From positions 5,685,299 through 5,749,298 of the forward strand of contig NZ_CP051167.1 in assembly GCF_012295525.1 (NCBI RefSeq): a stretch of DNA of 64,000 bases, given 5' to 3'. Source of the DNA: Oxynema aestuarii AP17 (GTDB taxonomy: Bacteria; Cyanobacteriota; Cyanobacteriia; Cyanobacteriales; Laspinemataceae). Positions 28,439 to 58,619 of this stretch are shown here, piece by piece; positions within the stretch are counted from its first letter, which is position 1, and each line of letters starts with the position of its first letter. Made by a program: the position numbers and the translations under genes. Below the pieces are notes generated by a model. The model was not told where the DNA came from, made no database searches, and saw only the letters and a program-made list of their open reading frames with translations.

Positions 28439-29629
28439 ATGAAATTCGTTTGCAAGCAAAGCGACCTAGGAACTAATCTGTCATTGGTGAGCCGGGCGGT
28501 ACCGTCTCGACCGACGCATCCGGTACTGGCGAACGTGCTGTTAAGTGCGGACGAAGAGAAGCAGGAAGTCAGTTTGACGGCGTTTGATTTAAGCTTGGGT
28601 ATCAAGACCACGTTTGAGGCTCAGGTGGAAACCGAAGGGACGATCGCCCTTCCGGCAAAACTCTTTAACGATATTGTATCCCGCTTGCCGGAGGGAGAAA
28701 TTTTGTTCGATGACGAAGCGAAAGACACGGCAGAAACGTCATCGGAGAGTGCGGCGATCGCCACCCTAACCTGTGCGACGGGACGCTATCAAGTCCGGGG
28801 GATGAGTGCGGATGAATTTCCGTCGTTACCGACGATTCAAGAGGGACAAAGCCTCGAAATCGCTATTGACGTTCTCATGGAAGGATTGCGCGGTTCGCTG
28901 TTCGCGACCAGTGGCGACGAAACGAAGCAAATTCTCACGGGAGTTCATGTTAAGGTTCACCCGGAAACGTTCGAGTTTGCGGCGACGGACGGCCATCGTT
29001 TGGCGGTGACGGAAACGGCGAGCCATCCGGAAGCGGAGGGGGAAGAAGAGGCGCCCAAACCGTCGGAACCGCGAGAATTTTTTGAAATGACGATTCCGGC
29101 CCGGGCGTTGCGCGAACTGGAACGGATGGCGGCGATGGGGGGTAAAGGAGAGGCGATCGCCCTGTCGTTGGATCCCGGTCAAATTGCCTTCGAGTTGTCG
29201 AACCAACGGCTGACGAGTCGCACTCTCGAAGGTCAATATCCCAATTACGGACAGTTGATTCCCCGGTCTTTCGAGCGCCAAATTACCGTAGAACGGCGTA
29301 AATTGCTCTCGGCGTTAGAACGGATCTCGATTTTGGCGGATAAAAAAAATAATATCGTCAAATTCTCGATCGATAGCGAAGGGCAGAAATTACGCTTGTC
29401 TGTGGAAGCGGCGGATGTCGGCAGTGGGGAAGAAGCTCTCGACGCTCAGATTTCTGGGGAGAGTTTGGACATTGCATTTAATGTTAAATATGCAATGGAA
29501 TCGTTAAAAAATCTCGGGTCCCAGGAAGTTCAAGTCAAATTGAATACGGCGACTTCTCCGGTCGTCCTGACGCCGTTAGGGGGAACGAAAATGACTCATT
29601 TATTAATGCCCGTACAGTTGCGCTCTTGA
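28439..29629 (+). CDS. dnaN: DNA polymerase III subunit beta (sliding clamp)
   Basis: N-terminus MKFVCKQSDLGTNLSLVSRAV...HPVLANVLL. Three-domain ~390-aa architecture. C-terminal ...VVLTPLGG...LLMPVQLR. Confidence 0.9.
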   Translation: MKFVCKQSDLGTNLSLVSRAVPSRPTHPVLANVLLSADEEKQEVSLTAFDLSLGIKTTFEAQVETEGTIALPAKLFNDIVSRLPEGEILFDDEAKDTAETSSESAAIATLTCATGRYQVRGMSADEFPSLPTIQEGQSLEIAIDVLMEGLRGSLFATSGDETKQILTGVHVKVHPETFEFAATDGHRLAVTETASHPEAEGEEEAPKPSEPREFFEMTIPARALRELERMAAMGGKGEAIALSLDPGQIAFELSNQRLTSRTLEGQYPNYGQLIPRSFERQITVERRKLLSALERISILADKKNNIVKFSIDSEGQKLRLSVEAADVGSGEEALDAQISGESLDIAFNVKYAMESLKNLGSQEVQVKLNTATSPVVLTPLGGTKMTHLLMPVQLRS

Positions 29630-32633: not shown

Positions 32634-34307
32634 GTGGTGTTGCGAGAAGATTTATTCATTGCCAGAGCAATAGGTGGCGCGATCGCTGTTATCGGCATTG
32701 TCAACAGTGGCGAATGGGGGGATTTTGCTCAAGCAGCTCCCCAACCACGCGATCGACAAACAACATTAAATATGGTCAAACAGTCGGTGATTTATAGATT
32801 TCCTGAAGTAAAACATAATCGCAGATTTGAAATTACAAACAATTATCTTTTTGCAAATCGCGATCTTGAAAACAATAGCCGTATCGACGAATCCGAACAG
32901 CGATCGCTTCCCTATTTTAACGAAGACGATCGGGCGATCGCCCTAACCTTAGCCGATATTGTAATTTTAGCCGTACAAAACAACCGCAATATTAAAAATG
33001 CCTATCTCCAACGCATCGCCGATCGCGAAAATTTAGCCGTCGAACTCGATAAATTTTCTCCTAATATCACCCCAGAAGCTTCTCTTTCTGTAGGCAGTAG
33101 TGATTTGGGAAGCTTAACTACAAATACCGCGCAATTGGGGTTCGGCGCGATCGTTTCCATTGCCTTACCCACCGGGGCTGAAATTATCGCCGAATGGGAA
33201 ACAAGCGGCATCGCTCAAAATAATAGTGAAGCGGCGATCGACGATGAAACGGGTCTGCAACAAAACATTGAATTGCGCTTCAGTCAACCCCTTTTAAGGG
33301 GATTTGGCAGAGAAGTGAATATAGCTTCTATTGAAGTTGCAAAACTTTCGGAACAGGTCAATATTCTCGATTTAAAATCTACATTAATCGAAACTGTTAG
33401 TGACGCGATCGTTGCCTACCGAAATCTCGTCCGCGCTCAAGAGCAGGTGGAAATTGAACGGCTTTCTTTACAGCGTGCCAAAGAATTATTAGAAATTAAC
33501 CGCGTGCTAATTGAAGCGGGACGACGCGCTCCAATTGAGATGGTACAAAGTCAAACCAATGTTGCCAATCAAGAAGTTCGCGTTTTAGAAGCGGAAAATG
33601 ACCTCGAAAGTCGCCAACTCGCTTTAATTGAAATTCTCGATATCGACCAACAAACTAAAATTACGGCGATCGAACAACTCGAAATTGAAGAAGCAGAATT
33701 ACCAAAAGAGCAGGAGTTAATCGATTTAGCTTATCAAAACCGTCCCGATTTTTTACAAGCTTTACTGGCGCTAGAAATTGCTGAATTTGATTTGTTACTG
33801 GCTGAAGATAACCGACGCTGGGATTTAGATTTAGAAGCCAGTTATATCAGTGGATTGCGAACCGATACGGAGGATACCAATGACTTGCGAGCTGGACTAA
33901 ATTTGAGTCGAGAATTTGGCGATCGCACGCTCCAACGAGATCTAGAAACAAGTCGCGTTAATATTTTACAAGAGCAAAATCGGCTGGAAGATTTACGCGA
34001 AACGATTAAAATTGAAGTGCGCGATCGCATCCGGGATGTTAATTTATTGCGTCGTCAAGTCGAACTCGCACGGACAGCGAAAGAATTATCTGCCCAAAAG
34101 TTAGCCAACGAGCGAGAACTCCTCAAACTCGGTCGTTCCTCGATCGCCGAAATCGTTCGTTTCCAAGAAGATTTAGTCGAGGCCACCAATGCCGAACTCA
34201 ATGCTAAAATTAATTATCTCAACGCTTTAACCCAGCTCGATCGCACGGTTGGCATTACCTTGGATACGTGGGAAATTACCGTTGAAGCGTTTCCTAAACT
34301 GGATTAA
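32634..34307 (+). CDS. TolC-family outer-membrane efflux protein
   Basis: Signal peptide, then two repeated ~200-aa OEP-type segments rich in coiled-coil A/E/L/Q repeats. GTG start. Confidence 0.75.
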   Translation: MVLREDLFIARAIGGAIAVIGIVNSGEWGDFAQAAPQPRDRQTTLNMVKQSVIYRFPEVKHNRRFEITNNYLFANRDLENNSRIDESEQRSLPYFNEDDRAIALTLADIVILAVQNNRNIKNAYLQRIADRENLAVELDKFSPNITPEASLSVGSSDLGSLTTNTAQLGFGAIVSIALPTGAEIIAEWETSGIAQNNSEAAIDDETGLQQNIELRFSQPLLRGFGREVNIASIEVAKLSEQVNILDLKSTLIETVSDAIVAYRNLVRAQEQVEIERLSLQRAKELLEINRVLIEAGRRAPIEMVQSQTNVANQEVRVLEAENDLESRQLALIEILDIDQQTKITAIEQLEIEEAELPKEQELIDLAYQNRPDFLQALLALEIAEFDLLLAEDNRRWDLDLEASYISGLRTDTEDTNDLRAGLNLSREFGDRTLQRDLETSRVNILQEQNRLEDLRETIKIEVRDRIRDVNLLRRQVELARTAKELSAQKLANERELLKLGRSSIAEIVRFQEDLVEATNAELNAKINYLNALTQLDRTVGITLDTWEITVEAFPKLD

Positions 34308-34535
34308 AACATTAAAGGAATCGGATCTATAGCTTTTTTCACGATCGGGCGGAGAATTGATTAGGCGACTTTCTCCCTCGGAGTGCATGTCTGCCCCCCT
34401 AACTTTAGCTCTTAAGTAAGATACAAGTAAATAGATTAATTATTTTTAGTATAGCACGCCCGGATTTCGGGAGGGGCGATCGCCGGGTCGATGGAGCCTG
34501 CGATAAAATCGAGAAAAGCTTGGATTTAACCAACG

Positions 34536-44240: not shown

Positions 44241-47200
44241 ATGTTCTTTTCTCTTGACGGCTACCAAGTCCTCGAATTAGTTTCTGAAACTGCAGCCTCG
44301 AAAGTTTATCGAGGCATCCGAGAAGACGATCGCACCCCAGTCGTCCTTAAACTTCTCAACAGCGAATATCCCACCCCCATTCAGTTAAAACGATATCGAC
44401 GAGAATATGAAATCCAAAAGAAATTAACCGGGGAAAAGATTTGTCAGGCGATCGCGCTTGAAGAATATAAAAACACCCTGATATTAATTTCTGAAGATGC
44501 AGGCATCTGTTTAAAACATCTCCTCAAGCGAGAACCGTTAACTTTGACGGAAAAGCTCGAAATAGCGATCCAAATTTGCGAGGCATTAGCGGAGGTCCAT
44601 CGAGCTAATATTATTCATAAAGACATCAATCCTTTTAATATCGTTGTCAATTCTGAAACTCGCAAAGTAAAGCTGATTGATTTCGGGATTGCAACTGCTT
44701 TAACCCGAGAACATCCCACCCTCAAGAATCCTACAATTTTAGAAGGAACGTTACCTTATATTTCTCCCGAACAAACCGGGCGGATGAATCGATCTTTAGA
44801 CTATCGTAGCGATTTTTATTCCTTCGGGATCGCCTTATACGAAATGTTTTCGGGACGAGTTCCTTTTGAGAGTGACGATGCGTTAGAGTTGGTTCACTGT
44901 CATATTGCTAAACCGCCGACCCCTTTAGATCGCCTAGATTGGGGGGACTCTGGTGATTTTCCCCAACCCTTGAGCGAGATCGTCATGAAATTGCTCGCGA
45001 AAAATGCGGAAGAACGGTATAAAAGTGCGTGGGGAATTCAAGCAGATTTAGCAGAATGTTTGGAACAACTCAAGGCGACCAATAGGGTTCGACCATTTGC
45101 TTTAGGGAAAAAAGATATTTCCGATCGCTTTGAAATTCCCCAAAAGCTTTATGGGAGAGAAAAAGAACTAGAAAGGTTATTAAAAGCTTTTTTTGATGTA
45201 GCTTCCACGCCAGAAGAACGGGGCGATCGCCAATCGGCTCGAACGAAATTGATTGTTGTTGAAGGATATTCTGGGGTAGGTAAATCTTGTTTAGTCTTAC
45301 AACTTTATAAACCCATTACTCGCCGTCGCGGTTATTTTATTTCGGGAAAATTCGATCAATTTCAGCGCAATATTCCCTATTCGGCGGTCGTTAGTGCTTT
45401 TCAGCAATTAGTCCGACAGTTGTTAACAGAAAGTGAAGCAGAATTAAAACGCTGGCGAGATAAAATACTGGCGGCGATCGCCCCCAACGCTCAAGTGATT
45501 GTCGATGTTCTTCCCGATATTGAAAAAATTATTGGTAAGCAGCCCCCAGTCGCCGAAGTGGGGGCGTCAGAAGCCCAAAATCGGTTTAATTTAGTCTTTC
45601 AAAACTTCATTCGGGCATTTTGCGATCGCGACCATCCCCTGACTATTTTTCTCGACGATTTACAATGGGCCGATTTAGCCAGTCTCAAATTGATCGAGTT
45701 AATGATGAGCGACGATCGTACCGAATATTTATTACCGATTGTTTCGTATCGAGAAAATGAAGTCGATGCTACACATCCGGCGATCGTTACCATTGAAAAA
45801 CTGCGTCAACAAGGGATTGAAATCGAGCAGATAGCCTTACAACCTTTGGATAAAGGCGCGATCGCTCAATTAGTAGCCGACACCTTACAGCATCCTGTTG
45901 AAAGAGTAGAAAGCTTAGCAAAATTACTGTTGCAAAAAACGGAAGGAAATCCATTTTTTGTCAATCAGTTTTTACAAACATTATATACAGAAGGCGCTAT
46001 TTTTCTAGATCTCCAGACTCATCAATGGCAGTGGGATGTTGCCGAGATCGAGCGCATGGATATTGCCGAAAATGTCGTTGAATTAACGGTAAAAAATTTA
46101 AAAAAATTACCCGAACTCACTCAAAAAGTTCTCCATCTTGGTGCTTGTCTCGGGTCGGAGTTTGATTTAGATACTCTGGCTACGATCGATCGCCAATCGA
46201 CTCAAGAACTCTTCAATCTCTTACTTCCTGCCGTAGAATCGGGTAGTGTTTTAACCCACAGCGATCGCGAAGAACGTCCCCGTCAAATCTATCAATTTGC
46301 TCACGATCGCATTCAACAAGTCGCCTACAATTCCTTTGAGGAAAACTACACGAAAAATATTCACTTGCAAATCGGTCGTTTTCTCTTGGAAGAAACCCCT
46401 CAAGAGAGTTTGCATGAAAATATTTTCGCGATCGCCGATCATTTTAATTTTGCTAAAGAACGAGTTATCGATTGTAACGAAATTGAAATGATAGCGAAAC
46501 TGAACTTGATGGCTGGAGAAAAGGCGATCGCCTCGACGGCTTATCCTGCAGCTTTAAATTATTGTCAAAAGGCGATCGATTGTCTGAGTGATTCTTGCTG
46601 GGAAGCACAATACGATCTGACCCTAACACTTTATACGAAACTCACCAAGGCGGCATTCTTATGCGGTCAGTTTGACAACGTAGAAAAATTTGCACGCATA
46701 GTTATCGATAACGCCAAGAATCCCTTCGATACCGTGCAAGTGTACTACATTAAAATTGAAACAGGAATGGCTCAAAATCAACTACAAAAAGCCATTCAAA
46801 TTGGTTTGAGCATTCTCAAAAAATTGGGAGTTGATTTTGGAGAAAATCTCGAAGCCATTGACGTGACTCAAAGTCTCGAAAATATTAACCGTCGATTGGC
46901 AAATATCGAACCCGAAAGCCTGCTCGATTTGCCGATCTTAGAAGATCCCCAACAATTGGGAATTCTGGAAATTCTCACTATTGTATCTCCTTGTTCTTTT
47001 ATTACAGCTCCTCAATTATTTATTGCCATCATTTGTAAGCAAATTGAAATTTACTTAGTCGCGGGAAATGCTATAAGTTTCGCTCCCACCACTTACGCAT
47101 TTTATGGATCGATTTGCTGTGGAATTCTGGGGGATGTAGAACGGGGTTATCAATTTGGTAAGCTGGCTATCAATTTAATTGATAAGTTTCACTTAGAAGC

Positions 47201-50096
47201 ACAACGAGCTAAAGTTGCAGTCATTTTTAATGCCACAACGGCTCACTGGAAAGATTCAGTCCAATCGAGCATTCAATCTTTGGTTGAAGCTTACAATATC
47301 GGACAACAAACCGGGGATTTACAATTTGCCGCCCATGGTTTGTATAATGCAGAGTTAGCGGCTTATATGAGTGGATCGCCTTTGCCGGAGTTGCTGGAAC
47401 GGATGGATCGCACGAACAAAATTATGGTTCAACTGCGGCAAAAAACTTTATTAAATTATCATTCAATTCACCATCAATCGATTCTCAATTTACTGGGAAA
47501 TGCTAAAGAAGAAAACCCAGAAGATAACAATACTCCACCCTGGATGTTACTCGGTTCGACGTATGACGAGCGAGAAAAGTTTAGCCTGCACGAGCAAGCC
47601 AAAGATTTGACGGGATTAGTCCATTTTTATTTAGCAAAAACCTTTCTGTTTTATTTATTTGAACAATTCGATCGCGCCCGTGAATTTGCGGAAAGGGGGC
47701 GTCAATCTTTAAGTGGGGTGACCGGACTGCTTTGCGGTTCCGTTTTTCAGTTTTACGAGGTTTTAGCCTATCTCGCATTTTACCCCCAAGCTTCGCCCGC
47801 CGACGGTCCCAGTTTACTCCAAAAAGTCGATGAAGCTCTGGCTAACTTTAAACGCTGGGGAGAACATGCGCCGTCAAATTACTTGCATAAATATTATCTC
47901 ATTAAAGCAGAAAAATATCGCGCGATCGGCGATCCGCTCAAGGCGATGGAAGCTTTCGATCGCGCGATCGAAATTGCGCGAAAATGCGCCTACTTGCACG
48001 AAGAGGCGATCGCCTACGAACGGGCCGCTCATTTCTATCTCGAATTGGGACGAGAAATGATTGCAAAAACTTACTTTTCTCAAGCTTATTATACCTATTT
48101 ACGCTGGGGAGCGATCGCCAAAGTACGAGATTTAGAAAGTCGCTATTCTCAATTTATCGCTCAAACTTCTACAAGTTCGACCCGTACTGTATCGACAAAA
48201 ACGAGCGTTCATACCTCTACCAGTACTGGATCGGGAAGCTCCCTCGATTTGGCGACAGTGATGAAAGCCTCTCAAGCTATTTCTGGAGAGATTCTCCTCG
48301 ATCGCCTCCTCGAACAATTGATGACAATTGTGATGGAAAATGCAGGAGCGCAACGGGGTTATTTAATCTTAGAAAGAAACGAAAAATTCTTTATTGAAGG
48401 GCGCGCCGAACTCGACTCCGTAACTGTTTTAGAATCTCTTTCTTTCGACGATCGCCTACCCATTTCTGTTATTAATTACGTCATTCGGACTCATGAAATA
48501 GTTGTAAAAACAAATGCATTTGAAGCCGGACAGTTCACCAACGATCCCTATATTCAAACTCATCAAACTCAGTCGATGTTATGCGCGCCCTTGCTCGATC
48601 GCGGACAGTTGACCGGGTTAATTTATCTGGAAAACAACTTAACTCCCGGCGCTTTTACCCCAGAACGCATCGAACTGTTACAACTACTTTCCGGACAGGC
48701 GGCGATCGCGATTGCCAATGCCAAACTGTACCAACAAGTCCGCGACAACCAACAACAACTTACCCAGTTTCTCGAAGCGATTCCCGTCGGTATTTTTATT
48801 AGCAATTCCCGAGGTCAATCCTACTATGCCAACCGCATCGCTCAAGAATTAATGGGGCGGGGAATTGCGCCGGAAGCTTCTTTAGAAGAATGGCCCGACG
48901 TCTATCAAATTTATTTAGCCGATAGCAATGCCAAATGCTCTATAGAAAATCTGCCGATCGCCAAAGCTTTAAGTGGCAAAACAATTAAAGTTGACGATTT
49001 AGAAATTGCTCATCAAAATCGACGAGTTCCTATTGAAGTTTTAGCAACGCCAATCTACGACGAACGGGGAAATTTAAACTACGCGATCGCCGCTTTTCAA
49101 GATATTAGCGAACGCAAACAAGCCGAAAAATTACTCGCCGAATACAATCGGACTCTCGAACGACAAGTCGCCGAACGCACCCAAGAACTACAACAAACTC
49201 TCGAATACTTGCAAGCGACCCAACAAGAGTTAATTCAATCGGAAAAAATGGCGGCTTTAGGCCAACTCGTTGCGGGAGTAGCTCACGAAATCAATACCCC
49301 CCTCGGTGCGATTCGTTCTAGTGCGGGCAATATGGGTAAATTCCTCAATCAAAGCCTCGAAGATTTACCCGGAATTTTACAATCCCTTTCTTCAGAAGAA
49401 ACTCGTGAATTCCTCAATTTGCTACGTCGTTCGTTGGAACAAGAAAATACACTTTCTGCACGAGAAGAACGCAAAATCCGCCGCAGTTTAATCCGCGAAC
49501 TCGATGCAGAAAATATCGAAAACAGTACCCACTTAGCCGATACCCTTGTCGATATGGGAATTTACGATAATATCGGCGAACTTTTACCCTTATTTCGACG
49601 GGAAAACAGCGATAAAATTGTCGATCTGGCCTACAAGCTTTCCGGGCTGCAAAAAAGTACGGCTCGTATCGAAATGGCGACGGAACGCGCCTCAAAAGTC
49701 GTGTTTGCACTAAAAACCTACGCTCGTTACGATAGTAGTGGGGAAAAAACGACGGCCAGCTTGAGCGAAAGCATCGAAACGGTTTTGACGTTATATCACA
49801 ACCAACTCAAACATGGAGTCGAAGTCATCCGCAATTACCAAGATCTGCCGCCGATTTGGTGTTATCCGGACGAACTCAATCAAGTCTGGACGAATCTCAT
49901 TCACAATGCTTTGCAAGCGATGAATTATCGAGGTCGATTATGGCTGACGATTGCTCGCTGCGGCGGCGAAGCGAAAGTTTCGATTACAGATAACGGTTGT
50001 GGGATTCCTGCGGAGGTCTTGCCGAAAATTTTCAATCCTTTTTTCACGACCAAACCCGCAGGAGAGGGGAAGCGGTTTGGGACTCGATATCGTTAA
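44241..50096 (+). CDS. HstK-type hybrid sensor: Ser/Thr-kinase-like domain - P-loop STAND/AAA ATPase - TPR-like helical region - GAF - PAS - HisKA - HATPase_c; 3' end frameshifted
   Basis: Kinase subdomains ([20 protein letters not shown]). Walker [12 protein letters not shown] ([16 protein letters not shown]...[18 protein letters not shown]). PAS. H-box [21 protein letters not shown]1 boxes. A 1-nt insertion near 50068-50072 stops the frame at 50096; the remaining G2 box and C-terminus continue in the +1 frame to 50196. Confidence 0.8.
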
Positions 50097-50425
50097 CAAA
50101 ATTGTGCAGAAACATTCAGGTACAATTGAAGTGGAAAGCGAACCGGGTCGCACCAGTTTCCACATTTCTCTGCCGTTACAGATAGATAAAGGGTGAGAGC
50201 GACGATTGCCTAAAAGCGATCGCCTAATTCTAAGGCAGGCATTCTATAATTTTGCTTATACTTCTGACTTGAAGATTACCTTAAGTCGGTACTTGACCCG
50301 GCGCGTGCTTGAAGCTTTATCAATTTTATCCGGTTATTCTCCCAAATGATTTGAGAGATCGATCTACTCCCCCGTCCTGTCACTGTCTCGACGAACCCCC
50401 GTATTGAATAAGGAGACTTCTGCTC

Positions 50426-53400
50426 GTGTTGGTTCTTGAAGGTTATCAGATTCTCGAAAAAATTTGTGAAAGTGTTGCATCTACGGTCTACCGAGGCATC
50501 CGAAAAACCGATCGCCGCCGCGTTATTTTAAAAGTTCTCAATAGTGAATATCCTACCCCAATTCAACTCAAGCGATATGAAAGAGAATATGAAATACTCC
50601 AACTCTTTGATACGGCATCAGTTTGCCAAGCTCTCGGTTTACAAGCCTATGAAAATACCCTCGTCCTCATTATGGAAGATGTGGGAATTTCACTCAAAGA
50701 ACTTATCAAAACATCCCCATTAACTTTAGACGATCGCCTCAGATTAGCGATTCAAGCGTGCGAGGCGATCGGACAGATCCACGCGGTTCACGTCATTCAT
50801 AAAGATATCAATTCTTCCAACCTTGCTGTCAATCCGGAAACCGGAGAATTGAAGGCGATCGATTTCGGTTTGGCGACGGTTTTAACTCAAGAACATCCGA
50901 TCCTTAAAAATCCTTCCATTTTAGAAGGAACTTTAACTTATATTTCCCCCGAACAAACCGGACGGATGAATCGCTCTCTAGACTATCGCAGCGATTTTTA
51001 TTCTCTGGGCGTCACCTTTTACGAACTGTTTTCGGGACGAGTTCCTTTTGAGAGTGGCGATGCTTTAGAGTTGGTTCACTGTCATATTGCTAAAACGCCG
51101 AAACCGTTGTGCGAACTAGATGCGATCGCCGATGGCAAACCGATCCCCGAAGCTATTTCTAAGATCGTGATGAAACTGCTGGCAAAAAATGCAGAAGAAC
51201 GCTATCAAAGTGCTTGGGGGATTAAAGCCGATCTCGAACGCTGTGCGGCGCAATTGCAAGAAAACGGATCGATCGAACCCTTTTCCATCGGTCAATTTGA
51301 CTTATCCGATCGCTTCCATATTCCGCAAAAACTTTACGGTCGGCAAGTTCAAATTCAACAATTACTAGATACTTTTGAGCGAGTTGCAACTCCGAATAAT
51401 TTTCAAGCTCATATTACCTTTATCACCGGATATTCTGGAATTGGTAAATCCGCCCTCGTCGCCGAACTCTACAAGCCAATTACCGCGCGACGGGGCTATT
51501 TTATTACGGGTAAATTCGACCAATTTCAACGCAACATTCCCTATTCGGCAGTCGTACACGCCTTCAAACAGTTGGTGAAATACCTGTTAACTGAAAGTGA
51601 AGGACAGTTATCTCAATGGCGCCAAAAATTACTGACAGCGTTGGGAACGAACGCGCAACTCATCGTCGATGCGATTCCCGAACTCGAAACAATTATTGGC
51701 CCACAGCCGCCCGTTCCCGATCTGGAGCCGTCCGAAGCCCAAAATCGCTTTAATTTTGTCTTTCAACATTTCATTCGGGTGTTTTGTTCTCCGGAACATC
51801 CGTTAACGATCTTTCTCGATGATTTGCAATGGGCCGATTCGGCGAGTTTGCACGCGATCGAGTTGATGTTGTCCGATCTCGAAACACGACATCTATTTAT
51901 TATCGGTGCCTATCGCCATCAAGAAGTGGGGGCGACTCATCCACTGCGGACGACTTTAGAAACTCTGGAAAAAGAAGGGGTTCCGATCGCCAATATTCAT
52001 CTCAAATCGTTGAAGTTAAATCAAATCGCCCAACTGATTGCCGATACTTTACACGACGATGCCGAAGCGGTCAGACCGTTAGCGAAATTGACCTTACAAA
52101 AAACCGGGGGGAATCCCTTTTTTGTCAGTCAATTTTTGAAAACGTTACACGAAAAAGGGGCGATCGCTTTCGATTGCGATCGCCACAGTTGGCAGTGGGA
52201 TCTCAAGCAGATTCAACAGACCAAAATTGCCGATAATATTGTCGAACTCACCCTCGAAAACCTCAAAAAATTGCCGCCGCTTACCCAAGACTTGCTCAAA
52301 ATGGCCGCTTGTCTCGGTTCTAGCTTCCAAACCCAAACCCTGGCGCTGGTGAGCGATCGCCCGGAAGCGGAGATCGGACGGGAGTTGATGAGTGCGGTCC
52401 GTTCGGGGGCGATCGCCACCACGTGCGAATTCGACGATCGCGGCTACATTCGCGAGTATCAATTCACTCACGATCGCGTGCAGCAAGCAGCTTATGCCTC
52501 GATCGCCCCTCGGGAACGTGCGGCCATGCATTTGAAAATCGGGCGGTCTTTGTGGCAGCATACGGACAATTTAGCCGAAAATCTGTTTAAAATCGTCGAT
52601 TGTCTCGATTTTGGCGTCGATTCGATTCACGATCGCCACGAACGGGAACGGGTGGCGGAACTCAACGCGATCGCCGGAGAGAAAGCCAAAGCCGCCAATG
52701 CTTACGCCGCCGCGATCGGCTATTTTAACGTGGGACTGCAATTACTCAGTACCGATGCCTGGGAGCAATCTTACGATCTCACCTTGCGACTCTACCGCGA
52801 AGCTGCCGAAGTCGCCTATTTAGCCGGAGACTACGATCGCCTCGAAGAATTGGCGGACATCGTCTGCGATCGCGCTCGCACCTTGCTCGATCGCATTAAA
52901 GTATATGAAGTGCAAATCGAAGCCTATAAAGCCCGAGGTCAAAACCGCGAGGCGATCGCGATCGCCCGTCCCCTCCTCCAGCAATTGGGTTTCGACCTTC
53001 CCGAAGCGCCGACTCCGGAACAAATCGGTGACGTTCTCGAAACCACGGCTCGATGCTGGCGCGATCGCGGCGTCGAGAGCTTACTAGACCTACCGCCGAT
53101 GCGCGACCCGGAACATCTCGCCGTTATGAGGATCGCCAACCGCCTGTTTGCCCCCATTTTTATCACCGTTCCCACCCTATTACCCGTGCTGGTGGGCAAA
53201 CAAGTTCAGCTCTCGATCGCCCACGGCAATGCACCATCTTCGTGCTACGCCTACGTCAATTACGGCTTAATTTTGTGCGGAATCGTCGGTGAGATCGAGA
53301 TCGGCTATCAATTCGGTCAGTTAGCGCTCAAATCGATCGACCCTCCCAATATGGCACAATATACCGCTCAAGTGCGCGGCCCCTTCCACGCGGGGATCGC

Positions 53401-56326
53401 GATCGGCAAAGAGCATTTAAAAGACTCCCTCGCCCCCCTGCGTGCCGCCTACCAAAAAGGGTTGGAGTTTGGGGACTTGTATTATGCAACTACCTGCGCT
53501 TTTGTATACAGTCTCCACGGCCTTTTTTCCGGGGTCGAACTCGATCTCCTCGACTCACAAATCGCCGCCTATCGCGACGCGATCGCCCAACTGCAACAAA
53601 CCACGACTTTAATTTATACATCGATTTACCACCAAACCCTTTTAAACTTAGTCCATCCGAGCGAAACCCCCTGGAAGTTCTGCGGCGATGCTTTCGACGA
53701 AGGCCAGCAATTAGCCGCCATTGTTGAAACGAACGATCGCTATGCCCTTTGCGCGTTCTACATCCATAAACTCTTCCTCGCTTACTTGCTCGACGGCTCG
53801 ACTGACTTGAGCGAGCTACTCGAAAACAGCGCCGAATATTTAGACGGAGCCACCGGAACCCTGTTAGTGCGCCTGTTCCATTTTTACGGCGCTTTAACTC
53901 GTTTAAAACTCTATCCATCGGCAACAGAACAACAACGACAAGTACACCTCGAAGCCGTCGAATTGTCCTGTCAAAAATTACAAAATTGGGCTAAATTTGC
54001 GCCGATGAACTACGCCCATAAATATCATCTCGTCGTGGCGGAACGGGCGCGAGTTTTGGGAGAAAAAATCGAGGCGATCGAACATTACGATCGCGCGATC
54101 GAACTGGCGCGCCAACATCAATATCTCAACGAAGAAGCCCTCGCCAACGAACGAGCCGCCCTCTTTTATCAAGGGTGGGGTAAAGCGAAAATTGCCCGGG
54201 TCTATCTCGCCGAAGCTTACTATGCCTATCAACGTTGGGGCGCGATCGCCAAAGTCAAGCAATTAGAACGACAGTATCCCGACTGGATCGATTCGTCAAC
54301 GGGGATAGCACCTCGCCTCGGCGTCAACACGACCACGACCCACCATTCCACCGCCACCGAATCGATTAAAGCATTAGATTTCGCCACCTTTATGAAAGCC
54401 TCTCAAGCCATTTCCGGCGAAATCATTTTAGAAAAACTACTCGTCGAACTATTAAAAATTCTCCTGGAAAATGCCGGGGCGCAAGTCGGCTATTTAATTT
54501 TAGAAACTGACGGGGAACTGCTCGTACAAGCGCGCGGGGAACGAGAAGGGGAAGATATCGCCGTTTTGGAAGCGTTACCGTTGGGCGATCGCCTGCCTCA
54601 ATCGGTAATTAACTACGTCGTTCGCACCAAAGAAACGATCGTCAAAACGAATGCGACTCGGGAAGGAAAATTTACCAACGATCCGTACATCCAAACCCAT
54701 CAAATCCAGTCGATGCTGTGTGCGCCCTTGCTCGATCGCGGGCAGTTAACTGGGTTAATTTATCTGGAAAATAACTTAACCCCCGGCGCTTTTACCCCGG
54801 AACGAGTCGAACTGTTGCAATTACTATCTTCCCAGGCGGCGATCGCGATCTCCAACGCCAAACTGTACCAACAAGTGCGCCAAAATCAACAACAACTCAC
54901 CCAATTTCTCGAAGCGATTCCCGTCGGCGTTTTCGTCGTCACCGCCCAAGGAGAACCCTTTTACGCCAACCGACGCGCCCAAGAAATCCTCGGACAGGGA
55001 ATTATTCCCCAAACCCAAAGCGATCGCCTCGGGGAGGTCTATCAAACTTACGTCGCCGGAACCGATCGCCTCTATCCCAACGAACGCAATGTCGTCCTAC
55101 GCGCCTTGAAAGGAGAAACCGCCACCATAGACGACGCCGAAATTCACCAACACGGGAAAATTATCCCCATCGAAGCCTCCTGCACCCCGATTTACGACGG
55201 CGACGGTAAAATTGTCTACGCGATCGCCGCGTTTCAAGATATCACCCAGCGCAAACAAGCGGAACAATTACTCGCCGAGTACAACCGCACCCTGGAACAG
55301 CAAGTCGCCGAACGCACTCAAGAATTACAGCAAACCCTCGAATATCTGCAAGCCACTCAGCAAGAACTGATTCAATCGGAAAAAATGGCCGCTTTAGGCC
55401 AACTCGTCGCCGGAGTCGCCCACGAAATCAATACGCCCCTGGGCGCCATTCGCTCCAGTGCGGGCAATATGGCCAAATTTCTCAATCAAAGCTTGGAAGA
55501 ACTACCCGGGATCTTCCAATCCCTCTCCCCGGAACAAACCCGGGAATTCCTGGATCTGTTGAGTCGTTCCCTGCAACAAGAAAACACCTTGTCCGCCCGC
55601 GAAGAACGCAAACGGCGGCGCGCCTTAGTCGGCGAACTCGACGCACGATCCATCGAAAATAGTACCCATCTCGCCGATACCCTCGTGGATATGGGGATTT
55701 ACGAGAATATCGACGAATTTTTCCCGTTATTTGAACGTCCCGACAGTCCCCACATCGTCGATCTCGCCTACAAACTGTCCGGACTGCAAAAAAGTACGAC
55801 CCGCATCGAAATGGCGACGGAACGCGCCTCGAAAGTGGTGTTTGCGCTCAAAACCTACGCCCGTTACGACAGCAGTGGCGAAAAAATGGCCACGGATTTG
55901 AGTGAAAGTATCGAAACGGTTTTGACCTTATATCACAACCAGATCAAACACGGGGTCGAAGTCGTCCGCGATTACGAAACTTTGCCCCCCATTCCGTGTT
56001 ATCCGGACGAACTCAATCAAGTTTGGACGAATTTGGTTCATAACGCCTTACAGGCGATGGACTATCGCGGTACTCTGACCGTGGCGATCGCCCGGGACGG
56101 CGATCGGGCCAAAATTACCATTGGCGATAGCGGACCGGGAATTCCCGAGGAGGTCTTACCGAAAATCTTCAATCCCTTTTTCACGACCAAACCCCCCGGC
56201 GAGGGTAGCGGTTTGGGACTCGATATCGTCAATAAGATCGTGCAGAAGCATTCCGGTAAGATTGAAGTGGAAACTCGACCGGGTTCGACCTGTTTTCATG
56301 TTTTTCTTCCTTTAGAGCCGCATTAG
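50426..56326 (+). CDS. HstK-type hybrid sensor, intact paralogue (Ser/Thr-kinase-like - STAND ATPase - helical - GAF - PAS - HisKA - HATPase_c)
   Basis: Same architecture as the upstream gene. Complete G2 box [31 protein letters not shown] lies 9 nt before GTG 50426. Confidence 0.85.
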   Translation: MLVLEGYQILEKICESVASTVYRGIRKTDRRRVILKVLNSEYPTPIQLKRYEREYEILQLFDTASVCQALGLQAYENTLVLIMEDVGISLKELIKTSPLTLDDRLRLAIQACEAIGQIHAVHVIHKDINSSNLAVNPETGELKAIDFGLATVLTQEHPILKNPSILEGTLTYISPEQTGRMNRSLDYRSDFYSLGVTFYELFSGRVPFESGDALELVHCHIAKTPKPLCELDAIADGKPIPEAISKIVMKLLAKNAEERYQSAWGIKADLERCAAQLQENGSIEPFSIGQFDLSDRFHIPQKLYGRQVQIQQLLDTFERVATPNNFQAHITFITGYSGIGKSALVAELYKPITARRGYFITGKFDQFQRNIPYSAVVHAFKQLVKYLLTESEGQLSQWRQKLLTALGTNAQLIVDAIPELETIIGPQPPVPDLEPSEAQNRFNFVFQHFIRVFCSPEHPLTIFLDDLQWADSASLHAIELMLSDLETRHLFIIGAYRHQEVGATHPLRTTLETLEKEGVPIANIHLKSLKLNQIAQLIADTLHDDAEAVRPLAKLTLQKTGGNPFFVSQFLKTLHEKGAIAFDCDRHSWQWDLKQIQQTKIADNIVELTLENLKKLPPLTQDLLKMAACLGSSFQTQTLALVSDRPEAEIGRELMSAVRSGAIATTCEFDDRGYIREYQFTHDRVQQAAYASIAPRERAAMHLKIGRSLWQHTDNLAENLFKIVDCLDFGVDSIHDRHERERVAELNAIAGEKAKAANAYAAAIGYFNVGLQLLSTDAWEQSYDLTLRLYREAAEVAYLAGDYDRLEELADIVCDRARTLLDRIKVYEVQIEAYKARGQNREAIAIARPLLQQLGFDLPEAPTPEQIGDVLETTARCWRDRGVESLLDLPPMRDPEHLAVMRIANRLFAPIFITVPTLLPVLVGKQVQLSIAHGNAPSSCYAYVNYGLILCGIVGEIEIGYQFGQLALKSIDPPNMAQYTAQVRGPFHAGIAIGKEHLKDSLAPLRAAYQKGLEFGDLYYATTCAFVYSLHGLFSGVELDLLDSQIAAYRDAIAQLQQTTTLIYTSIYHQTLLNLVHPSETPWKFCGDAFDEGQQLAAIVETNDRYALCAFYIHKLFLAYLLDGSTDLSELLENSAEYLDGATGTLLVRLFHFYGALTRLKLYPSATEQQRQVHLEAVELSCQKLQNWAKFAPMNYAHKYHLVVAERARVLGEKIEAIEHYDRAIELARQHQYLNEEALANERAALFYQGWGKAKIARVYLAEAYYAYQRWGAIAKVKQLERQYPDWIDSSTGIAPRLGVNTTTTHHSTATESIKALDFATFMKASQAISGEIILEKLLVELLKILLENAGAQVGYLILETDGELLVQARGEREGEDIAVLEALPLGDRLPQSVINYVVRTKETIVKTNATREGKFTNDPYIQTHQIQSMLCAPLLDRGQLTGLIYLENNLTPGAFTPERVELLQLLSSQAAIAISNAKLYQQVRQNQQQLTQFLEAIPVGVFVVTAQGEPFYANRRAQEILGQGIIPQTQSDRLGEVYQTYVAGTDRLYPNERNVVLRALKGETATIDDAEIHQHGKIIPIEASCTPIYDGDGKIVYAIAAFQDITQRKQAEQLLAEYNRTLEQQVAERTQELQQTLEYLQATQQELIQSEKMAALGQLVAGVAHEINTPLGAIRSSAGNMAKFLNQSLEELPGIFQSLSPEQTREFLDLLSRSLQQENTLSAREERKRRRALVGELDARSIENSTHLADTLVDMGIYENIDEFFPLFERPDSPHIVDLAYKLSGLQKSTTRIEMATERASKVVFALKTYARYDSSGEKMATDLSESIETVLTLYHNQIKHGVEVVRDYETLPPIPCYPDELNQVWTNLVHNALQAMDYRGTLTVAIARDGDRAKITIGDSGPGIPEEVLPKIFNPFFTTKPPGEGSGLGLDIVNKIVQKHSGKIEVETRPGSTCFHVFLPLEPH

Positions 56327-56346
56327 AACTTATGGAGGCGTTGACC

Positions 56347-56742
56347 ATGTCAAAACCCGTTATTTTATGTGTCGATGACGAAAAAGTTGTGTTAGACAGT
56401 CTCAAAAGCCAACTCAAGCAAGCCTTCGGAGATAAGTATTTTTACGAAATGGCCGAAGATGGAGCCGACGCCCTCGACGCGATCCAAGAACTCATGGAAG
56501 ATAGCATCCCGATTGTCATGATTGTTTCCGATTGGCTGATGCCGGGAATGAAAGGAGATGAGTTGTTAATTCGCATTCACCAACAATATCCGAACATCGT
56601 TAAAATCATGCTCACGGGTCAAGCCGAACCCTCGGCGATCGAACGAGCGAAACAAGAAGCCAATTTAAGTTTTTGTTTGCACAAGCCTTGGTCTGAAGAG
56701 GAATTAGTAACGGCAATTCAAGCTAGTTTAGCAAAGTTATGA
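56347..56742 (+). CDS. Single-domain response regulator (CheY-like receiver)
   Basis: VILCVDDE...IVSDWLMPGMKG...KIMLTGQ...HKPW receiver motifs. SD GGAGG lies 8 nt before ATG 56347. Starts 21 nt after the HstK stop. Confidence 0.8.
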   Translation: MSKPVILCVDDEKVVLDSLKSQLKQAFGDKYFYEMAEDGADALDAIQELMEDSIPIVMIVSDWLMPGMKGDELLIRIHQQYPNIVKIMLTGQAEPSAIERAKQEANLSFCLHKPWSEEELVTAIQASLAKL

Positions 56743-58517
56743 CGAAACAAGTCATTGTTTGTGTCGATGACGAACCGACAGTGTTGAGAAGCTTAAAAGC
56801 CGAACTCAAAGAAGCCGTCGGTGCCGATTATTTAATTGAAATTGCCGAAGGAGGCGAAGATGCGTTGGAGTTGGTTGAGGAATTACTCGAAGATGGTTAT
56901 GAAATTCCCCTAATCGTTTCCGATCATATCATGCCGGATATTAAAGGAGACGAACTGTTAAAAAGAGTTCACGAAATTTCTCCATCTACGTTGAAAATTA
57001 TGCTCACGGGTCAAGCCAGTATCGAAGCCGTGGGCAATGCCATTCAATATGCCCGCCTCTATCGTTATATTGCTAAACCTTGGCAGGCAGAAGATTTAAA
57101 ACTGACGGTCAAAGAAGCGATTAATAGTTATTTTCAAGAAAAGAAATTAGCCGAACAAAACGTCCAACTCCAAAAAATGAACGAAGAGTTGGAACAGTTA
57201 AACCGAGAACAGGCGGCGTTAATTGCCAAGTTACACGAAAAGGAAAATCGCCTGACCCAGTTTTTAGAGGCGATGCCCGTTGGCGTGTTTGTGGTCGATC
57301 GCGATGGCCAGCCTTATTATATTAACTCTCGCGCCCAACAACTGCTCGGACGGGGGGTGGAGTCTAATACAGTTTTAAGTGAAATTCGCTCGATTTATCA
57401 GGTCTATTTGGCCGGAACGGAGCAATTATACCCCGAACAGAGCGATCCGTTATTGCAAACCTTGCGGGGGAAGAGTATGACCGTGGATGATATGGAAATT
57501 CACCACGGCGATCGCGCGATCCCCATTGAAGTTTGGGGAACGCCGATTTACGACGATGAAGGTCAAATTGCTTACGGGATTGTCGCCTTTAACGATATCA
57601 GCGATCGCAAGAAAGCCGAAGCAGAACGGCAGCAGTTTATTCAAGAACTTTTTGAACTCAATACCAACTTAGAACTGGCGTTAGATTCCGAACTCAAATT
57701 GACCGACGCCGCCAGTCGCTTCGTCCCGAACGAGTTTCTTTCGTTTCTCGGTTACGAAAGTATTGCCGAAGTCAAATTAGGCGATAGCATAGAACAAGAA
57801 ATGTCCGTGTTTTTCTCCGATATTCGCGACTTTACTACCCTATCGGAGACGATGACGCCGGAAGATAACTTTAAATTTATTAATGCGTATTTATCGAGAA
57901 TGGAACCCGCGATCGTCGATAATCAGGGGTTTATTGATAAGTTTATCGGCGATGCGATTATGGCCTTGTTTGGCGGGGAAGCCGACAATGCAGTGAAAGC
58001 GGGCATTTCGATGCTGCATTGCTTACACGATTATAACGAACATCGCGATCGCTCCGGCTATTTACCCATTTCTATCGGCATCGGTATTAATACCGGACGC
58101 TTGATGCTCGGAACCGTCGGCGGATCGTTAAGAATGGACGGTACTGTGATTAGCGATGCGGTTAATTTGGCTTCGCGACTGGAAGGGTTAACCAAAAATT
58201 ACGGCGTCTCTTTACTGATTTCTCATCATACCTATTCTCGCTTACATAACGCCGACGATTATGCAATTCGCCTGATCGATCGCGTCAAAGTCAAAGGCAA
58301 ATCGGAAAGCGTCACGGTCTACGAAGTTTTTGATGCCGACTTGCCGAAATTAAAAGCTGGAAAACTCGCCAGTCTCGATCGCTTTGCTAAAGCGTTGGAT
58401 CTCTACAATCGCCACGTCTATCGCGAAGCTGCGGACCTCTTTCAAGCCTGTTTGGAACTCGAACCCGGCGATACGGTCGCGCAGATCTATCATAACCGAG
58501 CTTGCGATCGCCTTTAA
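56739..58517 (+). CDS. Response regulator with receiver - coiled coil - PAS - class III adenylate/guanylate cyclase domain
   Basis: REC (VIVCVDDE...VSDHIMPDIKG). The PAS region is homologous to the HstK PAS region (LTQFLEAMPVGVFVV...). Cyclase motifs FSDIRDFTTLSE, KFIGDAIMALFG, NLASRLEGLTK. ATGA overlap with the upstream REC gene. Confidence 0.85.
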   Translation: MTKQVIVCVDDEPTVLRSLKAELKEAVGADYLIEIAEGGEDALELVEELLEDGYEIPLIVSDHIMPDIKGDELLKRVHEISPSTLKIMLTGQASIEAVGNAIQYARLYRYIAKPWQAEDLKLTVKEAINSYFQEKKLAEQNVQLQKMNEELEQLNREQAALIAKLHEKENRLTQFLEAMPVGVFVVDRDGQPYYINSRAQQLLGRGVESNTVLSEIRSIYQVYLAGTEQLYPEQSDPLLQTLRGKSMTVDDMEIHHGDRAIPIEVWGTPIYDDEGQIAYGIVAFNDISDRKKAEAERQQFIQELFELNTNLELALDSELKLTDAASRFVPNEFLSFLGYESIAEVKLGDSIEQEMSVFFSDIRDFTTLSETMTPEDNFKFINAYLSRMEPAIVDNQGFIDKFIGDAIMALFGGEADNAVKAGISMLHCLHDYNEHRDRSGYLPISIGIGINTGRLMLGTVGGSLRMDGTVISDAVNLASRLEGLTKNYGVSLLISHHTYSRLHNADDYAIRLIDRVKVKGKSESVTVYEVFDADLPKLKAGKLASLDRFAKALDLYNRHVYREAADLFQACLELEPGDTVAQIYHNRACDRL

Positions 58518-58619
58518 AGCCCTGTTTTTATCGATCCGATCCCCCCGCCGTTGACCGACACTCGACATGCGTACTCGGGACGACGTTCGCGGTGGTGCTT
58601 CCCTCTACTTCTCGCAAGT

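Follow-up and report, generated by a model that had tools for sequence, protein, structure and literature searches.

The dual protein kinases of cyanobacteria (Ser/Thr kinase family III, cbSTKIII) combine a Ser/Thr kinase at the N-terminus with a histidine kinase at the C-terminus and contain one or more GAF domains in between; HstK (Alr2258) was the founding example, and Pkn40 and Pkn41 (Alr0709 and Alr0710) are encoded by adjacent, co-transcribed genes in Anabaena PCC 7120 (PMC2176072). Here we analyze a pair of neighboring genes of this kind, referred to as gene 1 and gene 2, in a stretch of 64,000 nucleotides from Oxynema aestuarii AP17 (contig NZ_CP051167.1, positions 5,685,299 to 5,749,298 of the forward strand; hereafter the window, with all coordinates given as window positions). 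In the assembly, the reading frame of gene 1 is broken by one additional nucleotide close to its natural end. Frame breaks of this type can have a trivial origin: residual indel errors in long-read-only assemblies truncate predicted proteins, usually in longer homopolymers, and are found many times per genome if polishing was poor. They can also be genuine, as laboratory lines of cyanobacteria fix 1-bp frameshifts in genes of signaling and motility, e.g. spkA and pilC in Synechocystis (PMC3514855). The comparisons described below identify the lesion in AP17 as an ordinary one, namely a strain-specific, unprogrammed one-base insertion, be it a loss-of-function mutation of very recent date or an error of the consensus.

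A single extra base in the assembly breaks the histidine kinase domain of gene 1

The proteins encoded by gene 1 and gene 2 both match the Pfam domains Pkinase, AAA_16, GAF, PAS, HisKA and HATPase_c. Pkinase extends over residues 10–261 with E = 1.1e-36 in gene 1 and E = 8.4e-35 in gene 2, and the VLK lysine as well as the HKD, DFG and SPE motifs are seen in the translated Ser/Thr kinase domain. The GAF domain is found at residues 1353–1491 of gene 1 (E = 7e-18) and at residues 1335–1475 of gene 2. Toward the C-terminus, gene 1 keeps HisKA with the H box AHEINTPL, the N box, the G1 box (DNGCG) and the F box (FNPFF). The label 'HstK paralogue', used for these genes in a first-pass annotation of the window, fits this domain architecture (PMC2176072).

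As given in the assembly, gene 1 covers positions 44241–50096 on the + strand and encodes a protein of 1951 aa (RefSeq WP_246259714.1). The first-pass annotation had placed a frameshift at the G2 box of this gene, with a stop at 50096 and a continuation in the +1 frame to 50196, and all of these statements hold when the sequence is read again. The reading frame of gene 1 ends with the out-of-frame tail KRFGTRYR followed by a premature TAA at 50094–50096 (tail and stop together at 50071–50096, + strand), while the +1-frame remainder (50071–50196, + strand) consists of 41 codons and a stop at 50194–50196 and holds the rest of HATPase_c, namely the G2 box plus the helix and strands that close the catalytic ATP-binding (CA) domain. 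By the frameshift, the last 41 residues of the CA domain are swapped for 8 unrelated ones.

At the nucleotide level, gene 1 reads GAGGGGAAGCGG where gene 2 reads GAGGGTAGCGG, which bears out the single extra base that the first-pass annotation had deduced from the paralogues; the identity of that base had to be refined with the help of orthologues. The comparison with these assigns the insertion to an A (A to AA, position 50070, + strand) after the GGGG run, rather than to a G, so that GGGGAGC becomes GGGGAAGC; the extra A is without counterpart in the four other Oxynema assemblies. In its present form, gene 1 gives an HATPase_c match of 55.4 bits over profile positions 3–76 of 111, ending before the G2 box, whereas with one base deleted the score rises to 98.9 bits and positions 3–110 of 111 are matched. 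Considering this rise, the frame break is not a chance resemblance, and profile positions 77–110 are those lost through the frameshift in AP17. The domain is complete once one A is removed and is complete in all orthologues; in gene 2 the match reaches profile position 110 of 111.

The insertion is confined to AP17

For the comparison within the genus we used the Oxynema assemblies JGI 3300059096, J007 / JGI 3300014822, CENA135 and JGI 3300040801, which are 95–99.7% identical. All four read GAGGGGAGCGG at the site and encode an intact protein of 1984 aa. In the wider context they read TTTTTCAC(G/C)ACCAAACCCGCAGGAGAGGGGAGCGGTTTGGGACTCG, and AP17 has one A more. The same picture emerges from the protein cluster at 90% identity, in which five of the six members have 1984 aa (three from JGI, that of the metagenome-assembled genome (MAG) J007, RMH75472.1, and that of Oxynema sp. 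CENA135, WP_200669087.1) and the AP17 protein alone has 1951 aa; the full C-terminus is present in the proteins of all five relatives. The insertion is therefore specific to AP17 among the relatives compared. More distant members of the family were collected by a contig scan of other species, with a best match of 61% identity, and a single in-frame match spans the junction in each of these 79 loci.

Relative to the nearest relative, which is 99.6–99.7% identical over positions 29387–64000 (34.6 kb), indels occur in three places only, at 50070 and in the intergenic intervals 34394–34460 and 58546–58572, both of which are rich in SNPs. The one at 50070 is the sole coding indel and the sole isolated indel in this interval. 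In a Pfam screen of ten other open reading frames of the window, which is the sole screen that covers positions 1–29386, no split domains were found.

Real mutation or consensus error

That AP17 carries a genuine, very recent and unprogrammed insertion of a single A in a conserved gene for a dual Ser/Thr–histidine kinase is a reading to which we attach about an even chance. Such an insertion would have arisen either in the wild or while the strain was being serially subcultured in the laboratory over a period of years. AP17 was subcultured every 15–21 days from isolation to sequencing (PMC7595944), a history that counts for a real mutation. Real pseudogenes are, moreover, not rare in the genus, as 84 are annotated in a sister species. 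The signs of a decaying pseudogene, i.e. further disabling changes and relaxed constraint, are absent from gene 1 of AP17; judged from its surroundings, the lesion, if real, must be very young, younger than any point substitution in gene 1.

The alternative that survives best is a consensus artefact, in which AP17 truly has a single A and an intact gene for 1984 aa, the extra A being a residual insertion error of PacBio-only sequencing; we rate its probability as somewhat short of even. As a rough prior, a few percent can be assumed in a 6-kb gene for a real mutation and for an artefact alike. The AP17 genome was built solely on PacBio continuous long reads, using Canu 2.0 and SMRT Link, and received no Illumina polishing (PMC7595944), a procedure that speaks against a real mutation, as do a number of features of the locus itself. 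The indel at 50070 stands alone in about 2 kb that are otherwise identical to the nearest relative, the closest substitutions lying at 49280 on the upstream side (about 0.8 kb away) and at 51285 on the downstream side (about 1.2 kb). The frame downstream of it has not decayed, the 41 codons that follow the shift being identical to those of the nearest relative. Gene 1 has 5,955 nt in every Oxynema relative, without any other indel, and its pairwise omega of 0.13–0.15 at dS of 0.11–0.16 within the genus indicates that it is conserved and under purifying selection in all of them. The insertion is located within a purine stretch of low complexity (GGAGAGGGGAAGCGG). AP17 is the sole carrier among the six cluster members, and no other carrier of the AA allele was found, by searches that are uninformative on this point: a scan of metagenome contigs for both alleles returned 0 matches even though JGI assemblies hold the intact allele, and a protein search with the frameshifted C-terminus returned relatives of at most 67% identity and missed the known Oxynema cluster. 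In addition, by a rough estimate, an error rate of 1 in 10^5 bases would leave about 0.35 errors in 34.6 kb, so that one error would be unremarkable.

Conversely, several properties of the assembly speak against an artefact. The genome was sequenced to very great depth, and SMRT Link was used for polishing; sequencing yielded 1.28 million subreads of about 6.8 kb for a genome of 6.36 Mb (PMC7595944), corresponding by arithmetic from the published figures to a raw depth of about 1,400x. The 34.6 kb compared contain 0 other isolated indels, coding or intergenic, implying that the residual error rate in this region is low. With the lack of split domains in the ten further open reading frames, the assembly looks well polished here. 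Errors that persist in PacBio assemblies after polishing are for the most part deletions within longer homopolymers, and an insertion at a run of one base is not the usual error of this kind. The homopolymer origin considered in the first-pass annotation has to be divided: an expansion of a long homopolymer does not apply to a change from A to AA beside a G4 run, while a sequencing or assembly error as such keeps its place among the explanations. On the whole we lean slightly toward a real mutation. The earlier framing, with an assembly error or a recent mutation as the main options and a slippery site as the less likely one, was sound in its ranking.

Expected consequences for the kinase

The CA domain of gene 1 aligns with histidine kinases of solved structure such as ZraS (9jfj) and CckA (5idj), where the matching segment is ...FTTK..EGTGLGL..., and the frame is lost between GEG and SGLGL, just where the G2 (GxGxG, ATP-lid) box begins. 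The G2 box, the following helix and the terminal strands are lost from gene 1. In histidine kinases, the G2 box and the C-terminal strands are required for ATP binding and for the Bergerat fold. On the basis of established histidine-kinase biochemistry, the truncated product of gene 1 would lose ATP binding and hence histidine autophosphorylation, and would retain the Ser/Thr kinase, NTPase-like, GAF, PAS and DHp modules; it would then fall to the intact gene 2 to signal to the response regulator and cyclase encoded downstream. A polar effect on gene 2 should be negligible, because only 100 nt separate the premature stop from the natural one and a search between genes 1 and 2 found no terminator on the + strand.

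A variant of the real-mutation reading holds that the truncation is not only real but also tolerated or useful, the protein serving as a phosphatase-biased or dominant-negative modulator of the kinase–regulator–cyclase cassette. The truncated protein, with its Ser/Thr kinase still active and with a DHp region 91% identical to that of its intact neighbor, would in this case heterodimerize with the product of gene 2 or compete for a shared response regulator. In a weaker form of the same idea, low-level +1 slippage at GGG-A would yield a trickle of the full-length enzyme. We regard these possibilities together as very unlikely.

Programmed frameshifting

The least probable explanation is that ribosomes shift by +1 at GGG-A, in a programmed or tolerated manner, or that transcription slips there, so that some full-length kinase would be restored as a regulatory device; we give it hardly any weight. 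It derives a certain appeal from the local sequence. The shift that rescues gene 1 is exactly +1, as at the frameshift site of prfB (release factor 2), and it is conceivable that a glycine tRNA moves from GGG to GGA, after which AGC would give the canonical ...GEGSGLGL. The zero-frame codon after the site, AAG, is the less used lysine codon (7.3 vs 31.8 per 1000 for AAA), and a Shine–Dalgarno-like AGGAG lies 2 nt upstream, adding to a likeness to the prfB site that is superficial. However, AGGAG and the G run just encode the conserved A-G-E-G and are also present in intact genes; AAG is neither a rare nor a stall codon, the rare one being AGG at 1.2 per 1000; and, unlike in prfB, the A site at the shift is occupied by neither an in-frame stop nor a hungry codon. 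The site holds neither the X XXY YYZ heptamer with a structure that defines the −1 motif class nor the stop or rare A-site codon of the +1 class, and a −1 frameshift is unable to rescue the frame of gene 1. The homopolymers, G4 and A2, are far too short for transcriptional slippage, and the downstream RNA has no noteworthy fold (z = −1.9; 12 of 200 shuffled sequences fold equally well). Most importantly, the frame break is unconserved among 83 related loci, being found in 0 of the 4 Oxynema relatives, which share identical or nearly identical flanking nucleotides without the extra A, and in 0 of the 79 family loci. Given this distribution, the slippery site allowing occasional frameshifting that the first-pass annotation had entertained fails, and programmed frameshifting is effectively excluded.

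Gene 2, the duplication and the downstream cassette

Gene 2, the intact paralogue, lies at 50426–56326 on the + strand and encodes 1966 aa in a single frame, 57% identical overall to gene 1. The proportion of synonymous differences between the paralogues (pS) is 0.4–0.9 over the whole alignment, i.e. near saturation, indicating that the duplication is old and that the two copies diverged anciently. Taken together with the purifying selection on gene 1 within the genus, this means that gene 1 cannot be taken for a dispensable copy left by a fresh duplication, and the description of it as a 'redundant' paralogue could not be upheld (pS of 0.4–0.9 between the copies; the low omega of gene 1 given above).

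In one region the paralogues are much more alike. The coiled-coil/DHp (H-box) region, located at 49116–49460 in gene 1 (codons 1626–1740) and at about 55250–55600 in gene 2, is 91% identical at the protein level, vs 57% overall and 40% in the middle region. Its pS is 0.60 and its pN 0.01, so synonymous divergence is the same there as elsewhere. We considered gene conversion as the cause of the near-identity, which is ruled out by the pS of 0.60; the substitution pattern indicates that very strong selection, not gene conversion, holds both DHp regions alike. This suggests a shared response-regulator partner or the formation of heterodimers. The likeness of the DHp regions across an old duplication, upstream of a regulator and regulator–cyclase cassette that is widely conserved, is independent of the frameshift and is the more interesting lead at this locus.

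Immediately downstream of gene 2 follows a CheY-like response regulator (56332–56742, + strand), which overlaps by 4 nt with the next gene, encoding a response regulator–PAS–adenylate/guanylate cyclase (56739–58517, + strand). The response regulator is encoded identically on four other contigs, and on two of these, both from JGI, the kinase upstream of it is called at 1984 aa. Its start codon is ambiguous, with 136 aa according to JGI vs 131 aa according to NCBI, and the start that gives 136 aa lies 5 nt past the stop of gene 2. In 45 of the 79 related loci the dual kinase is again followed directly by one or two receiver-domain genes, in the order CheY-like regulator and then another receiver-domain protein, which is frequently a receiver–PAS–cyclase; these loci extend to non-cyanobacterial lineages, with Beggiatoa-like Gammaproteobacteria, Moduliflexus, KSB1 and Bacteroidota MAGs among them. 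Among the related loci, only Scytonema (2 loci) and Oxynema were seen to have a second copy of the kinase immediately after the first.

Other differences among Oxynema strains

Apart from the insertion at 50070, gene 1 contains seven nucleotides that are unique to AP17, all of them in one tract of 297 nt at 45821–46117 (codons 527–626). Four of these sites alter the protein (G585, Q592, V600 and L626), where the five relatives all have D, H, I and P, respectively. The clustering looks like a small imported recombination patch. Gene conversion from gene 2 was examined as the source of the tract and is unsupported, as only 4 of the 7 sites match gene 2.

Two intergenic tracts, 34260–34463 and 58546–58610, are hypervariable among strains that are otherwise 99.6–99.7% identical. 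They display dense single-nucleotide polymorphisms and hold all of the non-coding indels, including differences in the length of C runs. A further difference near the locus is found in CENA135, where a gene for an IS605 OrfB / Cas12f-like TnpB stands beside the 121-aa open reading frame that comes after the PhoD gene; in the other Oxynema assemblies a DUF760 gene lies beyond that open reading frame, and the TnpB gene of CENA135 is a strain-specific insertion.

Significance and annotation

The biological significance of the insertion is small, as it concerns a lesion of a single strain in one of two paralogous sensor kinases, and such lesions are routine in cultured cyanobacteria and in long-read-only assemblies. 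Its practical importance lies in curation. RefSeq and UniRef list the 1951-aa product (WP_246259714.1, UniRef100_UPI001FE45301) as a normal 'ATP-binding sensor histidine kinase' and carry no frameshift flag, and a pseudogene flag is likely missing because the product retains 98% of the full length. AP17 was for a time the only Oxynema genome, and when used as the reference it passes on a CA domain without the G2 box.

Comparison with known systems

With respect to gene organization, the closest counterparts are Pkn40 and Pkn41 of Anabaena PCC 7120, with which the Oxynema paralogues share their position as neighbors on the same strand (PMC2176072). The two pairs differ in age and composition. 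Pkn40 and Pkn41 have been described as a 'recent duplication', whereas the Oxynema proteins are only 57% identical and their synonymous sites are near saturation (PMC2176072). Unlike the Anabaena pair, the Oxynema pair also has AAA_16 NTPase-like and PAS domains and stands directly upstream of a CheY-like regulator and a regulator–PAS–cyclase gene, and copy 1 of AP17 is without the end of the CA domain.

With respect to the lesion itself, the frame break in AP17 can be set beside two known classes. It resembles residual errors of long-read sequencing in being an isolated 1-bp indel in a PacBio-only genome, located in a conserved gene and leading to a truncated RefSeq protein, and it is unlike the typical error of this class in being single in 34.6 kb and in being an insertion of A to AA. 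It also resembles the 1-bp insertion in spkA (sll1574/sll1575) of Synechocystis PCC 6803, as in both cases a one-base insertion is specific to one cultured line, a kinase is truncated and the sister lines are intact, and like the lesions of the Synechocystis substrains it was found only by the comparison of strains (PMC3514855). The lesions in spkA and pilC of Synechocystis PCC 6803 have been confirmed by resequencing and are tied to the loss of motility, whereas the insertion in AP17 is known from the assembly alone (PMC3514855).

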